Positions 1,554 to 6,090 of a stretch of DNA of 64,000 nucleotides are shown piece after piece. The stretch comes from Candidatus Limadaptatus stercoripullorum. GTDB taxonomy: Bacteria; Bacillota; Clostridia; Christensenellales; CAG-917. The position numbers and the translations under genes were made by a program. Within the stretch, counting starts at the first letter, position 1. The number at the start of each line of letters is the position of its first letter. The stretch lies in the NCBI GenBank assembly GCA_018713795.1, contig DVOE01000010.1, positions 4,014-68,013 on the forward strand, written 5' to 3'. The notes beneath the pieces were generated by a model that saw only the letters and a program-made list of their open reading frames with translations, was not told where the DNA came from and did not search any database.

Positions 1554-1587
1554 CGGAGCGGCGGACGCCCCGGGCGGCGGTGCGAAT

Positions 1588-1604
1588 TGTAAAATGTTTG
1601 TAAA
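1588..1604 (-). promoter_or_regulatory. Candidate Pho box (PhoP/PhoB-type direct repeat) upstream of pstS
   Basis: The reverse complement of 1588-1604 reads TTTACA-AACAT-TTTACA. That is two TT(A/T/C)ACA hexamers with a 5-nt spacer (11-bp period), matching the Bacillus subtilis PhoP dimer-site consensus. It lies about 80-95 nt upstream of the pstS ATG in an AT-rich patch. Confidence 0.4.
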
Positions 1605-1684
1605 TGACACGAGCGTGACAAAATTTCATATGAGCGTTGCAAGCGGCAGGTAGCATTAGACTGCCGAAAGGCAAGGAGGCTCAT

Positions 1685-2575
1685 ATGAGAAATAAGAAGA
1701 TGAGAAGACTGCTTATCGCCATGGTTTGCGGTCTGTTGATCGCGGCGGCTGCCATAACCATGGTCGCATGCGATCCCAAAGACACCGACACCATCAATGT
1801 ATACTCCCGCGAAGAAGGGTCGGGCACGCGCAGCGCGTTCATCGAGCTGACAGGCGTCGAAGAGGACGACAAGGACCGCACTTACGACAAGGCGACCATC
1901 CTTGACGGCACCAATAAGGTGCTCACCGCCGTCGCGGGGGACAAAAGAGGCATAGGTTATGTCTCCTACGGTTCTTTGAACGATAAAGTGAAGGCGATAA
2001 GTGTTGACGGCGTGGCGCCATCCGTTGATGCGATCAAGAGCGGCGATTACAAACTCTCCCGTCCCTTCAACATCGCCTACAAGCAGGCGACCGTCAACGG
2101 GAACGCCCTCGCCGCGGACTTTTTGAACTTCCTCTTCTCCTCCGAGGCGCAGGAAGTCATCGCCGAGGAGAATTACATCACCGACGACGCGGTCGAGCAC
2201 AAGCCCTATGCGAAGTCCCAGGGCATCGAGGCTGCCGAGAGCATAACCGTAGGCGGGTCGTCCTCCGTCTCTCCGCTCATGGAGAAGCTGATAGCGACTT
2301 ATGAGACGCTCTCCGGCGTGTCCGACAAGATAGAGCTGATGACCTCCGACTCCACGAGCGGCATGAACAACGCCATAAGCGGCACTTACGACATAGGCAT
2401 GGCGTCCCGTGAGGTCAAGGACAGCGAGATCGACGCGGGTCTCACCGCGCAGGTGATCGCCATCGACGGCATAGCTGTCATCGTCAATCCCGAGAACGCG
2501 GTCTCCGCGCTCACCGGCGAACAGATCAAGAACATTTTTATCGGCGCCGTCACTTCCTGGAAAGACATAGCCTGA
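1685..2575 (+). CDS. pstS: Phosphate ABC transporter substrate-binding lipoprotein PstS (apparently circularly permuted)
   Basis: AAGGAGG RBS precedes ATG 1685. Signal peptide MRNKKMRRLLIAMVCGLLIAAAAITMVAC carries a lipobox. PstS/PBP_like_2 motifs are present (REEGSGTRSAF; GIGYVSYGSL..VKAISVDG; ITVGGSSSVSPL; IFIGAVTSWKDI). It is the first gene of a pstSCAB-phoU operon. The track ORF starts at 1637, but 1685 has the RBS. Confidence 0.85.
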   Translation: MRNKKMRRLLIAMVCGLLIAAAAITMVACDPKDTDTINVYSREEGSGTRSAFIELTGVEEDDKDRTYDKATILDGTNKVLTAVAGDKRGIGYVSYGSLNDKVKAISVDGVAPSVDAIKSGDYKLSRPFNIAYKQATVNGNALAADFLNFLFSSEAQEVIAEENYITDDAVEHKPYAKSQGIEAAESITVGGSSSVSPLMEKLIATYETLSGVSDKIELMTSDSTSGMNNAISGTYDIGMASREVKDSEIDAGLTAQVIAIDGIAVIVNPENAVSALTGEQIKNIFIGAVTSWKDIA

Positions 2576-3531
2576 TGAAAGACGCCGTAAGAACGGAAAA
2601 GTTCCGTGGGCGCAAGTCCGCGGAAGGCAGCCCCTCTTCGCCGCGCACCTCCTCGCGCGGCGGGGCGGGGCTTCGCGCGTTCGGCGAGGGGGCGATGAAG
2701 GGAGTGTTCATCGTCGCGGCGGGGCTGTTCATCGCCTGCGTGCTCGTCATATGCGCGTTCATATTCGTGCAGGCGGTGCCTGCGCTTGCCGAGATAGGGC
2801 TCGGAGAATTCCTGTTTTCCACCGACTGGTCGCCGACGGATATACCTCCGTCCTACGGTATAGGGACTATGATAGTCGGCTCGTGTTATGTCACGGCGGG
2901 CGCGCTCATAGTCGGCGTCCCGATCGGGCTGCTTATGGCAGCGTTCATGGCGAGATACTGTCCCCGCCCCGTCTACAAAGTCATGAAGCCCATGGTCAAC
3001 ATCCTTGCCGGCATACCGTCCATAGTATACGGCTACTTCGGCATGACGGTCATCGTGCCCTTTGTGCGCGACTACATGGGCGGAGCGGGCTACGGTATAT
3101 TCAGCGCGTCCCTCGTGCTTGGCATAATGATACTCCCCACGGTGATCACGGTGTCGGAGACGGCTCTCCGCGCGGTGCCGCGGAGCTACTACGAGGGCGC
3201 GGTCGCGCTCGGAGCCACTCATGAGAGGGCGGTGTTCCTGACAGAATTCCCTGCCGCCAAGTCGGGCATAACCACGGCTATCGTGCTCGGGCTGGGCAGG
3301 GTGATAGGCGAGACTATGGCGGTCGTTATGGTGGTCGGCAACAGCACCGTGCTTCCCGAGAGCATCTTCGACGGCGTGCGCACCATGACCTCACATATAG
3401 TCATCGAGCTCGGCTACGCCACGGATCTGCACCGCGGAGCGCTCATCGCCACTGCGGCGGTGCTTTTCGTGTTCATCCTCATGATAAATCTTCTGGTCGC
3501 CGCAATACGCTCCAAAGGAGGCGGCAAATGA
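2575..3531 (+). CDS. pstC: Phosphate ABC transporter permease PstC
   Basis: TGATG overlap with the pstS stop. Multi-pass membrane protein with the ABC permease EAA-like region (SETALRAVPRSYYEGAVALGATHERAV). Operon position fits. The true start could instead be the internal ATG at 2695. Confidence 0.88.
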   Translation: MKDAVRTEKFRGRKSAEGSPSSPRTSSRGGAGLRAFGEGAMKGVFIVAAGLFIACVLVICAFIFVQAVPALAEIGLGEFLFSTDWSPTDIPPSYGIGTMIVGSCYVTAGALIVGVPIGLLMAAFMARYCPRPVYKVMKPMVNILAGIPSIVYGYFGMTVIVPFVRDYMGGAGYGIFSASLVLGIMILPTVITVSETALRAVPRSYYEGAVALGATHERAVFLTEFPAAKSGITTAIVLGLGRVIGETMAVVMVVGNSTVLPESIFDGVRTMTSHIVIELGYATDLHRGALIATAAVLFVFILMINLLVAAIRSKGGGK

Positions 3532-4424
3532 AAGCGGCGGCGGATCTCAGAGGCAGACCTTTCGTCAATCGGAGAGGACTCAAACAGCGCCTGAAAGAGT
3601 ATTCCAAGCACCCGATCTCCCTCGCCGTCATGCTGCTTGTCATCCTCTCCGCGCTCGCTACCGCGGCGCTCGTCGTGTGGATAGTGGTGTATGTGCTCAT
3701 GCAGGGTCTGCCAAATCTCACGCCCGAGCTGTTCGAATGGGAGTACACGGTGGACAACCGTTCGCTGACGCCGGCGCTCATAAACACGCTCATCATAGCG
3801 GGACTGTCCCTCGTTATCGCCGTGCCCGTAGGAGTGGCGGCGGCGATATTCATGACCGAGTACACTTCCTCGCGCAATAAATTCGTGGCGGTGGTCAGGA
3901 TGGCGGCGGAGACGCTGTCGGGCATACCTTCCATAGTCTACGGCATTTTCGGTATGTTGCTCTTCGTCGAGGTGGTGTTCAAGCGCTACAGCATGATAGC
4001 GGGCATACTCACCATGGCGATAATGGTGCTCCCTCTCGTCATGCGCACCACCGAGGAGGCTTTGAAAGCCGTGCCCGTGTCGTTTCGCGAGGGATCCTTC
4101 GCACTGGGCGCGGGCAAGCTGCGCACCGTGTTCGGCATAGTGCTCCCCGCCGCGCTTCCGGGCATCATCTCCGGCGTCATTCTGGCGTTCGGCAGAGTGG
4201 TGGGGGAGACAGCCGCACTCATATACACGGCGGGCACGGTCGCCCGTGTCCCCGACTCGTTGCTCGGAAGCGGAGAGACTTTGTCCGTGCATATGTATCT
4301 GCTGTCCTCGGAGGGATTGTATGTTGACCAATCTTGGGCTACGGCAGTCATACTTATCCTGCTCGTGCTGCTCATCAACGGAGCGGCGGAGCTCGTGTCC
4401 GATAAATTTAAAAAGGAGTACTGA
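3528..4424 (+). CDS. pstA: Phosphate ABC transporter permease PstA
   Basis: ATGA overlap with pstC. Motif [29 protein letters not shown] is typical of PstA. Operon position fits. Confidence 0.9.
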
Positions 4425-5455
4425 TGAACATCGGGTCGCTGTTTGAAAAACTTTTGAAACGCCGGAAGGACGGCGAGACGGATGAGAGACCCGCCGCCGA
4501 AGAAACTCCCGTCGCAGGCGAGAGATCTGCCGCAGGACAGAACTCATCCCCGGTGACGGATGCTCCTGCGCCGGAAGGGGAGCGCCTCGCGGGCGAGGAC
4601 GCCGCGGCGTCCGGGGAGGAAGAGACCGCAAGCGCAGAAGATGGCGCCGCTTCGGGAGAAGGAAGGATCGCGGCGGGCGGAGAGAGCGATGGCGCGGCGG
4701 AGGGAAAGCCCAAGTTCACCGTGCGTTCGCTCGATCTTTTTTACGGTAACTTTCAAGCGCTCAAGTGCATCGACATGGACATCCCCGAAAGGAAGATAAC
4801 CGCGCTCATAGGTCCGTCCGGCTGCGGCAAATCCACCTTTCTCAAGACGCTTAACCGAATGAATGATCTTGTCCCGGGCTGCCGCATATCGGGCAGTGTG
4901 TTGCTCGGCGATGAGGATATCTACAAGACCGCCGATGTCAATCTGCTCAGGAAGAGGGTGGGCATGGTGTTTCAGAAGCCCAATCCTTTTCCGTCCAGTG
5001 TCTACGACAACATCGCCTACGGCCCCAAAACGCACGGAATACGCAAGAAGGCGGAACTGGACGAGATCGTCGAGAGTTCGCTTCGGGCCGCCGCGATATG
5101 GGACGAGGTCAAGGATCGCCTCAAAAAGAGCGCGCTCGGACTCAGCGGCGGGCAGCAGCAGAGGTTGTGTATAGCGCGCGCGCTCGCCGTCAAACCCGAA
5201 GTGCTGCTCATGGACGAACCGACCTCCGCGCTCGATCCTATCTCCACAGCCAAGATAGAGGAACTCACCGAGGAACTGAAACGGGAATATACCATAGTCA
5301 TAGTCACCCATAATATGCAACAGGCGGCGAGGATCTCGGACAGGACGGCGTTCTTTTTGCTCGGCGAGCTCATCGAATACGGCGAGACCGAGAGGCTGTT
5401 CGAGCGCCCTGCGGACAAACGCACGGAAGATTATATCACGGGGAGGTTCGGCTGA
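4424..5455 (+). CDS. pstB: Phosphate import ATP-binding protein PstB with an approximately 95-aa acidic low-complexity N-terminal extension
   Basis: TGATG overlap with pstA. Walker [10 protein letters not shown], signature LSGGQQQRL, Walker [12 protein letters not shown], and the PstB-typical [17 protein letters not shown] entry. No in-frame ATG lies near the canonical start. Confidence 0.9.
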
Positions 5456-6090
5456 TGACGAGAAAGCAGTACGATGAGGAGCTCGCGCGCGTCCGCGGGC
5501 TCATAATGAAAATGTGCGTTGCGGCAAAGGAGGGCATAGTCGCCGCCGCGAAAGCGTTCGCCGCCGCGGACGAAGAGGCCGCAGCCATCGCCTCCGCCCG
5601 CGAGGCGGAGGCCGACGAACTCGAAAATGCCGCCGAGAGGCTGTGCATGGCGATAGTCGTACGCCGCCAGCCTGTCGCGCACGATCTCGCCGTCGTGACT
5701 GCTGCCGCCCGCATGATCGGCGAGCTCGAGCGCATAGCCGATCAGGCGTCCGAGATAGCGGGGACGGCCCTAAGGCTCGGCGGCGCGCAAGCGCCCGAAT
5801 GCATGGACGCCATGTTTGCCGCCGCCATAAAGATGGCAGAGAAATGCATGGCGGCGGCGGAGTCGCACGAGCCCTCCGCGGCGCGCGATGTAATAAGATA
5901 TGACGATGTCATGGACGGGCTGTTCGCAGAGGCGCGCACGCGAATCGCGGAGACGGTGCGCGGTGGGAAGAGGGACGGAGAGAGCGCACTCGACCTCATG
6001 ATGACAGCCAAATATCTCGAGCGCATAGGCGACCATTATGTCAACACAGCCGAGTGGATGCTTTTTGCGCTCGGGCAGCCCATTCGCTGA
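5455..6090 (+). CDS. phoU: Phosphate signalling complex protein PhoU
   Basis: TGATG overlap with pstB. Two PhoU repeats with conserved E..ERIAD / LERIGDH motifs. Terminal gene of the pst operon. Confidence 0.9.
   Translation: MTRKQYDEELARVRGLIMKMCVAAKEGIVAAAKAFAAADEEAAAIASAREAEADELENAAERLCMAIVVRRQPVAHDLAVVTAAARMIGELERIADQASEIAGTALRLGGAQAPECMDAMFAAAIKMAEKCMAAAESHEPSAARDVIRYDDVMDGLFAEARTRIAETVRGGKRDGESALDLMMTAKYLERIGDHYVNTAEWMLFALGQPIR

Follow-up and report, generated by a model that had tools for sequence, protein, structure and literature searches.

The window analysed here, a 64-kb stretch of the genome of Candidatus Limadaptatus stercoripullorum, holds an ordinary Pst phosphate-uptake operon whose first gene, pstS, encodes a circularly permuted protein; the permutation leaves the understanding of the window unchanged. 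We call segment A the region corresponding to the C-terminal half of canonical PstS and segment B the region corresponding to its N-terminal half. Canonical proteins read B-A and the window protein reads A-B. The features of the locus are the following:

1587..1604, + strand: Pho-box-like direct repeat TTGTAAA-atgt-TTGTAAA with an 11-bp period, read from the sequence by eye
1673..1679, + strand: ribosome-binding site AAGGAGG, 5 nt upstream of the ATG at 1685, read from the sequence
1685..2575, + strand: circularly permuted pstS, 296 codons and a stop codon (HMM and chain matches, AlphaFold2 model)
1685..1771, + strand: lipoprotein signal peptide with a basic n-region, a hydrophobic helix (residues 4-24) and a lipobox ending in ..TMVA-C29
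1787..2182, + strand: segment A, residues 35-166, the canonical PstS C-terminal half (TIGR02136, PF12849 and 4Q8R matches)
2183..2233, + strand: connector, residues 167-183, linking the two ancestral termini (C to N), outside both half-alignments to canonical PstS
2234..2572, + strand: segment B, residues 184-296, the canonical PstS N-terminal half (TIGR02136, PF12849 and 4Q8R matches)
2575..3531, + strand: pstC, permease (TIGR02138, 267.3 bits against a cutoff of 196.45)
3528..4424, + strand: pstA, permease (TIGR00974, 260 bits against a cutoff of 193.45)
4424..5455, + strand: pstB, ATPase (TIGR00972, 417.9 bits against a cutoff of 343.2)
5455..6090, + strand: phoU (TIGR02135, 148.5 bits against a cutoff of 130.25)

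The open reading frame at 1685-2575 is unbroken and encodes a lipoprotein. We favoured the start at 1685 over an upstream TTG at 1637 because of the position of AAGGAGG just before the ATG. The four genes directly downstream all exceeded their NCBIfam equivalog cutoffs, and the original prediction was thus right in placing pstS first in a pstSCAB-phoU operon. PstB carries an unusual N-terminal extension of ~95 aa, with TIGR00972 covering residues 98-343 only. Regarding the upstream region, a promoter scan gave no sigma-70-like promoter upstream of pstS. The direct repeat at 1587..1604 is the reverse complement of TTTACA-N5-TTTACA, the B. subtilis PhoP-box type, and by its resemblance to PhoP and PhoB boxes it is a putative regulator binding site. 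Among eleven related genome loci with a permuted pstS (L001-L011, described below), TGTAAA or TTGTMAA repeats with an 11-bp period precede the gene in L001-L005, L007 and L008, and TTTACA-N5-TTTACA does so in L011.

In profile searches, PF12849 and TIGR02136 both matched the native protein in two stretches. Residues 177-295 corresponded to positions 34-155 of the 295 of TIGR02136, the N-terminal part of the model. When the halves were searched alone, residues 35-170 (nt 1787-2194) matched TIGR02136 at 163-293 of 295 (E 7.5e-24) and PF12849 at 132-267 of 267, while residues 171-296 (nt 2195-2572) matched the same models at 33-155 of 295 (E 4.3e-28) and 6-125 of 267. The canonical PstS chains 4Q8R and 4GD5 also aligned in exchanged order, with query residues 184-295 on chain residues 3-113 (E 1e-18) and query residues 37-166 on chain residues 120-244 (E 5.8e-21). 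As a control, we rearranged the protein in silico into a de-permuted sequence, with residues 177-296 placed ahead of 30-176. It gave a single collinear match to TIGR02136 (35-293 of 295, 188.8 bits) and to PF12849 (6-267 of 267, 118.8 bits versus 103.1 in the native order). Joining the new C-terminus (..SWKDIA) to the new mature N-terminus (DPKDTDTINVYSRE) rebuilds the canonical junction, and the old termini are linked through residues 167-183. No similarity between half A and half B was detectable (hhalign probability 0.3%, E 0.23), so the swapped matches are not cross-hits between internal repeats. The segment order of the window PstS is therefore a circular permutation of that of canonical PstS.

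These data bear out the central claim of the original prediction, including the HMM signature that it expected, two partial matches with swapped model coordinates, which was found exactly. The outcome that it set against a permutation, a single collinear full-length HMM alignment, was not what the native protein gave. The peptides it quoted are all present in the reading frame, and the coordinates it gave for the two halves (about 1793-2180 and about 2243-2572) are right to within a few codons. The homology to PstS is clear, with a PF12849 score of 103.1 bits in the native order against a gathering score of 27, and it is the topology that departs from the collinear N-to-C order of the two models. 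The trusted cutoff of TIGR02136 (206.6 bits) was missed in both orders, with 175.5 bits for the native and 188.8 bits for the de-permuted protein, which indicates a divergent branch of the subfamily.

The ligand-binding elements are divided between the segments. Segment A bears R42 and the phosphate loop S46-G47-T48, and segment B bears the loop G191-S192-S193-S194 together with S223/T224, D236 and S241-R242. Only 7 residues follow C29 before INVYSREEGSGT, the anchor directly ahead of the R-x-x-GSGT strand; the median tether after the lipobox Cys among permuted representatives is 13 residues. The gap between the two domains in representatives of the permuted family has a median of 13 residues and ranges from 11 to 51.

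The AlphaFold2 model of the window PstS has a mean pLDDT of 89.5. Values fall below 50 at residues 20-32, in the signal-peptide region, and lie at 85-88 across residues 162-186, the connector region, which is modelled without regular secondary structure. The only strong Foldseek match was PDB 4H1X (TM 0.88, rmsd 2.4 Å, 39% identity, E 6.7e-30), and the following matches had TM values of 0.49 or less. Canonical PstS structures were missing from the top 50 Foldseek matches of the model, as one would expect with an order-dependent aligner. The structural equivalence to canonical PstS is suggested by the sequence alignment together with the match of 4H1X to the model.

4H1X is SP_2084 of S. pneumoniae, "PstS 2", deposited in 2012 as a phosphate-binding protein, and residues 34-295 of the window PstS align to residues 8-264 of its chain collinearly and in one stretch (E 1.8e-46). 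Hence, PstS2 has the same permuted segment order. Like the window gene, it heads a pst-phoU operon; the pneumococcal Pst2 system is a working Pi transporter and its binding protein PstS2 is expressed (PMC4913102). The two proteins differ in that they are only ~39% identical, with a connector and a stretch after the SGT loop of unequal length, and in their hosts, a streptococcus and a gut Clostridia lineage. The pneumococcus additionally has a canonical PstS1 (4EXL). With this and the other canonical short PstS proteins of Firmicutes (C. perfringens 4Q8R/4GD5), the window PstS shares homology over both halves (E 1e-18 and 6e-21), phosphate-binding motifs, operon partners and the predicted bilobed fold. 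It differs from them in the exchanged halves, in termini that would lie in the other lobe, in a 17-residue connector where they have free termini, and in missing the TIGR02136 trusted cutoff.

The A-B order was found in 115 of 120 close homologues of the window PstS. Among the 150 best 50%-identity representatives, it was present in 127 by BLAST or 115 by HMM, the latter count requiring a coverage of at least 75%. One 98%-identity cluster with this order has 192 member sequences. Besides, we located the permuted gene at 11 independent genome loci, one of them on a 1.23-Mb contig, each adjoining pstCAB(-phoU) and with the pst gene arrangement kept. These loci come from close relatives, namely uncultured Clostridia, Ca. 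Limadaptatus, Limiplasma, Ventricola and Parasporobacterium. Wherever an organism could be named, members of the permuted family were from Firmicutes, S. pneumoniae PstS2 included, and most are lipoproteins; several relatives are named at NCBI only 'substrate-binding domain-containing protein'. The A-B order is thus the standard architecture of a large and diverse family, with at least 115 50%-identity clusters among the best 150, and the layout of the window PstS is inherited rather than the product of a local event. On this point the original prediction, which implied an unusual or possibly new arrangement particular to this gene, is not supported: the window protein adds to a family for which sequences and a solved structure already exist. 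The prediction named no published report of a PstS permutation, and our own search of the open-access literature likewise turned up no account of such a permutation occurring naturally in PstS.

The binding residues are near-invariant in the 115 permuted representatives, in agreement with the predicted retention of all ligand-binding motifs. In segment A, R42 is kept in 112, S46 in 112, G47 in 111 and T48 in 111; in segment B, S192 is kept in 114, S194 in 113, S223 in 110, S241 in 115 and R242 in 112, and position 236 is D or E in 97. The lipobox Cys29 is present in all 21 aligned homologues and in 106 of the 115 representatives. The phosphate contacts of E. coli PstS (T10/F11, S38, D56, R135 and S139-G140-T141) all have equivalents in the window protein (S193/S194-V195, S223/T224, D236, R42 and S46-G47-T48). 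Since binding residues, lipobox Cys and pstS-pstCAB-phoU context are all conserved, the window PstS is very probably functional.

The chain layout is as follows. Directly behind the lipidated cysteine (Cys29), the chain begins with the strand that enters the R-x-x-G-S-G-T phosphate loop; in canonical PstS this strand belongs to the middle of lobe II. It next passes through the normally C-terminal half and a connector of ~17 residues bridging the ancestral termini, continues into the normally N-terminal half with the G-S-S-S loop, S/T223-224 and D236, and ends at ..TSWKDIA, just where canonical PstS would go into the SGT strand. The fold is predicted to be that of a type II periplasmic binding protein, with a cleft as in canonical PstS and Pi presumably held from both segments. 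The permutation would alter the positions of the termini and which lobe is sequence-continuous, and the changed termini would therefore attach the membrane tether to the other lobe. The loaded protein would then hand Pi to PstC, PstA and PstB, encoded directly downstream, with PhoU as regulator, and expression would probably be under the control of a Pho-type response regulator.

One could argue that the reading frame is an assembly chimera of two neighbouring or paralogous pstS copies, an outcome that the original prediction had itself named as speaking against a permutation. Chimeras do occur in the family, as in the BAB proteins P0036 and P0041, whose contigs have 1.5-3.4x coverage. However, the same order and the same junctions recur in the 115 of 120 close homologues and the at least 115 diverse clusters, at the 11 loci including the 1.23-Mb contig, in the 192 sequences of the 98%-identical cluster and in a crystallised protein from cultured S. 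pneumoniae, and a second pstS-like sequence is absent from the 64-kb window. We consider this reading effectively refuted and give it virtually no weight. It is also very improbable that the gene is the decaying, non-working remnant of a tandem duplicate, with Pi bound by another PstS elsewhere in the genome. The window is a 64-kb view of that genome, and relative to its nearest genome relatives PstS is only 57-59% identical, versus 74-84% for PstC, PstA and PstB. Against decay stand the intact frame with its strong ribosome-binding site and lipobox, the confident fold prediction, binding residues kept near-invariant in a family diverged to 35-50% identity, the persistence of the gene at or beside pstCAB, and the expressed homologue PstS2 with its functional transporter.

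A change of specificity, by which the permuted family would bind another oxyanion (phosphite, phosphonate, arsenate or sulfate) instead of orthophosphate, is improbable. It would be compatible with the TIGR02136 score below the trusted cutoff and with the uninformative NCBI names of several members. In E. coli PstS, D56 discriminates protonated phosphate, and its equivalent is D in just 89 of the 115 representatives and A in some close homologues. Nevertheless, the canonical Pi-contacting positions are all kept in the window PstS, D236 included, equivalog models identify its partners as genuine PstC, PstA, PstB and PhoU, 4H1X was deposited as a phosphate-binding protein, and pneumococcal Pst2 transports Pi. 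Finally, the polarity could be the reverse, with A-B ancestral and the 'canonical' B-A order derived. A midpoint-rooted NJ tree nests canonical units within permuted ones, a tree biased because it was built from the best matches to a permuted query. We find this polarity very improbable. In outgroup families that share the fold, the A-homologous segment is C-terminal; they include PF13531 SBP_bac_11, binders of sulfate, thiosulfate and thiamine, and a LysR-family model associated with selenium. The de-permuted sequence is collinear over the whole of PF13531 (positions 1-223 of 227). In the native order the match is confined to the C-terminal tip of PF13531 and falls in the N-terminal half of the protein. 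Besides, the order is B-A in E. coli-type PstS and in the other solved chains aligned across both halves; most of the remaining solved chains matched the B half only. By these sequence comparisons, the canonical B-A order appears to be ancestral. Having weighed these alternatives, we hold with high confidence that the window gene encodes a functional, lipid-anchored, high-affinity Pi-binding protein of the Pst importer, a natural circular permutant with an inherited layout.

The permuted layout most likely arose when a canonical pstS was duplicated in tandem and in frame and the outer halves were then lost. The tandem-duplicated stage envisaged by the original prediction exists among related sequences: we identified 10 clusters of in-frame PstS-PstS fusions (B-A-B-A) with units 69-96% identical, as well as one triple fusion (B-A-B-A-B-A) and two A-B-A-B forms. 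One fusion, P0135 (569 aa), is encoded on a 1.64-Mb contig, where it is flanked by a phoPR-like two-component system and pstCAB. Such tandem fusions in real genomes fit a duplication with subsequent trimming of the ends. They contain the same two segments as the window PstS, with the A-B order internal to B-A-B-A, and occupy the same operon position adjoining pstCAB. Unlike the window PstS, they comprise two or three complete canonical units of high mutual identity; they are recent lineage-specific duplications and not its direct ancestors. NJ trees of re-ordered halves, sampled around the permuted query and biased accordingly, gave 3-5 parsimony changes of order with very short internal branches, a poorly resolved phylogeny that does not demonstrate a single origin.

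We also considered shorter forms as candidate 1.5-copy intermediates and do not count them as reliable evidence. The B-A-B proteins P0036, P0037, P0041 and P0049 and the A-B-A protein P0048 resemble chimeras assembled at low coverage. Identity between their duplicated halves is only 35-44%, and the contigs of P0036, P0037, P0041 and P0048 have 1.3-3.4x coverage. The DNA of P0036 and P0041 is 100% identical to about nt 595 and ~70% identical thereafter, and the switch falls at the conserved GSGTRGAF motif. Three others (P0136, P0159 and P0193) are most simply explained as tandem fusions that have been truncated.

A comparable case is TpMglB-2 (Tp0684) of Treponema pallidum, a circularly permuted type I glucose-binding lipoprotein for which 'type Ic' was proposed (PMC4990184). 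Like the permuted PstS, it is a natural, family-wide permutant of an ABC-transporter ligand-binding protein, and such permutants occur chiefly among tethered binding lipoproteins from spirochaetes and from Gram-positive bacteria of the gut, and have kept ligand binding (PMC4990184). It differs in belonging to type I / cluster B, where the permuted PstS is type II / cluster D, and in its ligand and cut site, and the two lack a sequence relationship. By analogy, the large and mostly lipoprotein PstS clade that includes PstS2 may constitute an undescribed permuted subclass of type II / cluster D binders, a 'cluster D-c', a proposal to which we give slightly less than even chances. If it is true, the permutation takes the lipid tether off lobe I and places it on lobe II, the recurrent in-frame PstS-PstS fusions provide the duplication step, the orphan structural-genomics entry 4H1X has displayed the topology unremarked since 2012, and profile cutoffs derived from the canonical order under-annotate the family, as the missed TIGR02136 cutoff illustrates. 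Recognising the permutation would allow the binding protein of such Pst systems to be named correctly, since PstS models match it in two pieces and the TIGR02136 cutoff is missed.

The canonical, tandem (double and triple) and permuted forms of PstS are all located in phosphate operons, and would represent stages of a duplication-and-deletion route within one fold. A tether on the other lobe might affect docking, folding during export or kinetics, a question also raised for the permuted glucose binder TpMglB-2 (PMC4990184). S. pneumoniae, with a canonical PstS1 and a permuted PstS2 that each have their own transporter, offers a natural test of tether relocation.

The pstS gene heads an operon whose genes and upstream elements are listed below. 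Its product contains all the peptides quoted in the original prediction, which read the protein as an apparent circular permutant of PstS.

Features of the pst operon and its upstream region
1587-1604: direct repeat TTGTAAA-atgt-TTGTAAA, 11-bp period, about 80 nt upstream of pstS
1673-1679, + strand: ribosome-binding site of pstS, sequence AAGGAGG
1685-2575, + strand: pstS, a single unbroken reading frame of 296 codons
2575-3531: pstC, 267 bits against an NCBIfam equivalog cutoff of 196
3528-4424: pstA, 260 bits against a cutoff of 193
4424-5455: pstB, 418 bits against a cutoff of 343
5455-6090: phoU, 148.5 bits against a cutoff of 130

The PstS N-terminus presents a basic n-region, a hydrophobic helix and the lipobox ..TMVA-C29, and INVYSREEGSGTRSAF begins seven residues past C29. 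When the whole protein was scanned, the PF12849 (PBP_like_2) and TIGR02136 matches were each split in two stretches, with residues 177-295 corresponding to the N-terminal part of TIGR02136 (34-155 of 295). Scanned alone, residues 35-170 matched positions 163-293 of 295 in TIGR02136 (E 7.5e-24) and 132-267 of 267 in PF12849, and residues 171-296 matched positions 33-155 of 295 (E 4.3e-28) and 6-125 of 267, respectively. Two partial matches with swapped model coordinates are what had been predicted. The canonical PstS of C. perfringens (4Q8R) also aligned in swapped order, its chain 3-113 with residues 184-295 and its chain 120-244 with residues 37-166. Solved canonical PstS chains that aligned over both halves did so in the same way, S. 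pneumoniae PstS1 (4EXL) among them.

As a control, we de-permuted the protein in silico by joining residues 177-296 to residues 30-176. This gave one collinear full-length TIGR02136 match (35-293 of 295) and one collinear PF12849 match (6-267 of 267), with 118.8 bits vs 103.1 for the native order, and spanned the outgroup model PF13531 in full (1-223 of 227). The canonical junction was restored without extra linker, the C-terminus ..TSWKDIA being joined to the mature N-terminus DPKDTDTINVYSRE. No similarity between the halves was detectable when they were compared with hhalign (probability 0.3%), so the swapped matches are not a repeat artefact. Although homologous to canonical PstS (PF12849), the protein is not collinear with that family. 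According to these results, the circular permutation is confirmed, far beyond chance, and the original observation was correct, as was the test outcome it predicted.

An AlphaFold2 model built from a 21-sequence alignment had a mean pLDDT of 89.5 and a pTM of 0.78, with low confidence only in the signal peptide and tether. Its sole strong Foldseek match in the PDB was 4H1X, the S. pneumoniae SP_2084/PstS2 structure (E 6.7e-30, TM 0.88, rmsd 2.4 Å), and the runners-up were generic proteins of the type II periplasmic binding protein (PBP) fold (TM at most 0.49). No canonical PstS structure appeared among the top 50 matches, as expected when a permuted chain is searched with a residue-order-dependent aligner. 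From the order of secondary structures in the model and the established type II PBP topology, the chain would start in lobe II, pass to lobe I along the LSRPFNIAY strand and complete the ancestral C-terminal helices. After a predicted connector without regular secondary structure (residues 162-186), it would build the remainder of lobe I, go back via the VIAIDGIAVIVN strand and end with two lobe II helices. On this path, we infer that lobe I is contiguous in sequence and lobe II is split, the reverse of canonical PstS, and that the lipid tether would have shifted from lobe I to lobe II.

One could argue that the arrangement is a misassembly of two pstS copies. There is, however, no second pstS-like sequence elsewhere within the 64-kb window, and the same order (A-B, where A is equivalent to the canonical C-terminal half and B to the N-terminal half) recurs in relatives and in 4H1X, which is collinear with residues 34-295 (E 1.8e-46). 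With a word-indexed search we retrieved a cluster of 192 member sequences at 98% identity, plus thousands of relatives, and 115 of 120 relatives among the matches listed had the A-B order. An exhaustive HMMER search covered 1.84 billion 50%-identity representatives and produced 381 matches at E up to 1e-30. Among the best 150 of these, 127 by BLAST, or 115 when HMM coverage had to reach 75%, were single-copy A-B proteins of around 280-320 aa, and only 4 were canonical B-A. At 11 genome loci, from uncultured Clostridia, Ca. Limadaptatus, Ca. Limiplasma, Ca. Ventricola and Parasporobacterium, the permuted gene adjoins pstC-pstA-pstB(-phoU); one Ca. Limiplasma locus sits on a 1.23-Mb contig. The survey of relatives proposed with the original prediction found the order repeatedly. 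The A-B layout comes by inheritance from a large family for which sequences and a crystal structure already exist; the window therefore contributes a new member and not a new kind. Regarding sequence divergence, PstS is 57-59% identical to its nearest genome relatives (L001-L007; window 1685-5455), vs 77-78% for PstC, 74-76% for PstA and 82-84% for PstB, and evolves much faster than these partners.

By sequence and predicted structure, the protein belongs to the SP_2084/PstS2-like family. 4H1X was released in 2012 as "Phosphate-binding protein pstS 2". The S. pneumoniae Pst2 system uses the permuted PstS2 as its binding protein; it is expressed and works as a phosphate transporter, and is described only as "evolutionarily distinct" from Pst1 with no mention of topology (PMC4913102). 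Phosphate-contacting positions were near-invariant across 115 permuted representatives.

Residues conserved among 115 permuted representatives
R42: 112/115
S46: 112/115
G47: 111/115
T48: 111/115
S192: 114/115
S194: 113/115
S223: 110/115
D/E236: 97/115
S241: 115/115
R242: 112/115
Cys29 (lipidated): 106/115

The gene encodes a genuine permuted PstS, which is very probably functional.

Natural circular permutation across a whole family of ABC-transporter binding proteins has been published before, for T. pallidum TpMglB-2, likewise a lipoprotein and frequent in Gram-positive gut bacteria; it has a type I fold, and the designation "type Ic" was proposed for it (PMC4990184). In the open-access full-text literature we found no description of PstS, PstS2 or 4H1X as circularly permuted, and it may be that neither this family's permutation nor the tandem fusions illustrating its origin have been reported before. 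The window PstS does not reach the TIGR02136 trusted cutoff, even when de-permuted. Several permuted homologues (P0060, P0072 and P0214) are named only 'substrate-binding domain-containing protein' at NCBI, consistent with the permuted order placing them below the cutoff, which would leave a systematic annotation gap.

Outgroup families of the same fold carry the A-like segment at the C-terminus, which makes B-A the ancestral order. The tandem-duplicated relatives sought by the original prediction were found. In 10 clusters the proteins are in-frame B-A-B-A fusions whose units share 69-96% identity, a further fusion is B-A-B-A-B-A, and two proteins repeat the permuted form in tandem (A-B-A-B).

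Multi-copy PstS reading frames in relatives
P0135, P0124, P0134, P0141, P0185, P0190, P0200, P0205, P0226, P0230, P0122: in-frame tandem fusions of two or (once) three complete PstS units
L016 5001-6710: P0135 fusion, flanked by a phoPR-like two-component system and pstCAB; contig of 1.64 Mb
L012 6001-7317: P0036, one-and-a-half copies (B-A-B/A-B-A class)
L015 168-1472: P0041, same class
L013 1434-2630: P0037, same class
L014 160-1407: P0048, same class

In the tree, each fusion's two units group closest to one another, so in-frame tandem duplication of pstS is recurrent, and the events appear to have occurred separately in each lineage. Hence, this family gives good evidence for the duplication step of the classical route by duplication and deletion. 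A trimmed one-and-a-half-copy stage is not documented: the candidate frames were considered as such intermediates and rejected as reliable evidence, since their duplicated halves are only 35-44% identical and the four metagenome contigs examined have 1.3-3.4x coverage. In addition, P0036 and P0041 are DNA-identical in their 5' part up to the conserved GSGTRGAF motif and around 70% identical beyond it, a signature of chimeric assembly or recombination. These frames probably arose by chimeric assembly; if genuine, they would encode naturally occurring proteins with a choice of folding frame, canonical or permuted.

Upstream of pstS, the repeat at 1587-1604 reads TTTACA-N5-TTTACA on the other strand, which we take to resemble B. 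subtilis-type PhoP boxes, making it a candidate PhoP-type box. This fits with the promoter scan, which found no sigma-70 consensus promoter upstream of pstS. Related repeats are kept upstream of permuted pstS at L001-L005, L007, L008 and L011.

Regarding the partners, PstB has an acidic, Ala/Gly/Glu-rich N-terminal extension of around 95 aa before the ATPase domain (window 4424-4710), which no PstB at the 11 related loci shares; the TIGR00972 match is limited to residues 98-343. The ATG at 4424 has a good ribosome-binding site (AAGGAG) and overlaps the pstA stop codon, and translation could alternatively begin at the in-frame GTG at 4721, whose GGAGG is distant. The longest pstC frame opens with around 40 Arg/Ser/Gly-rich residues (window 2575-2694) that lie outside the PstC model (starting at residue 41) and the relatives' matches (starting at 34-37), and translation may really start at the ATG near 2695 (MKGVFIV..).
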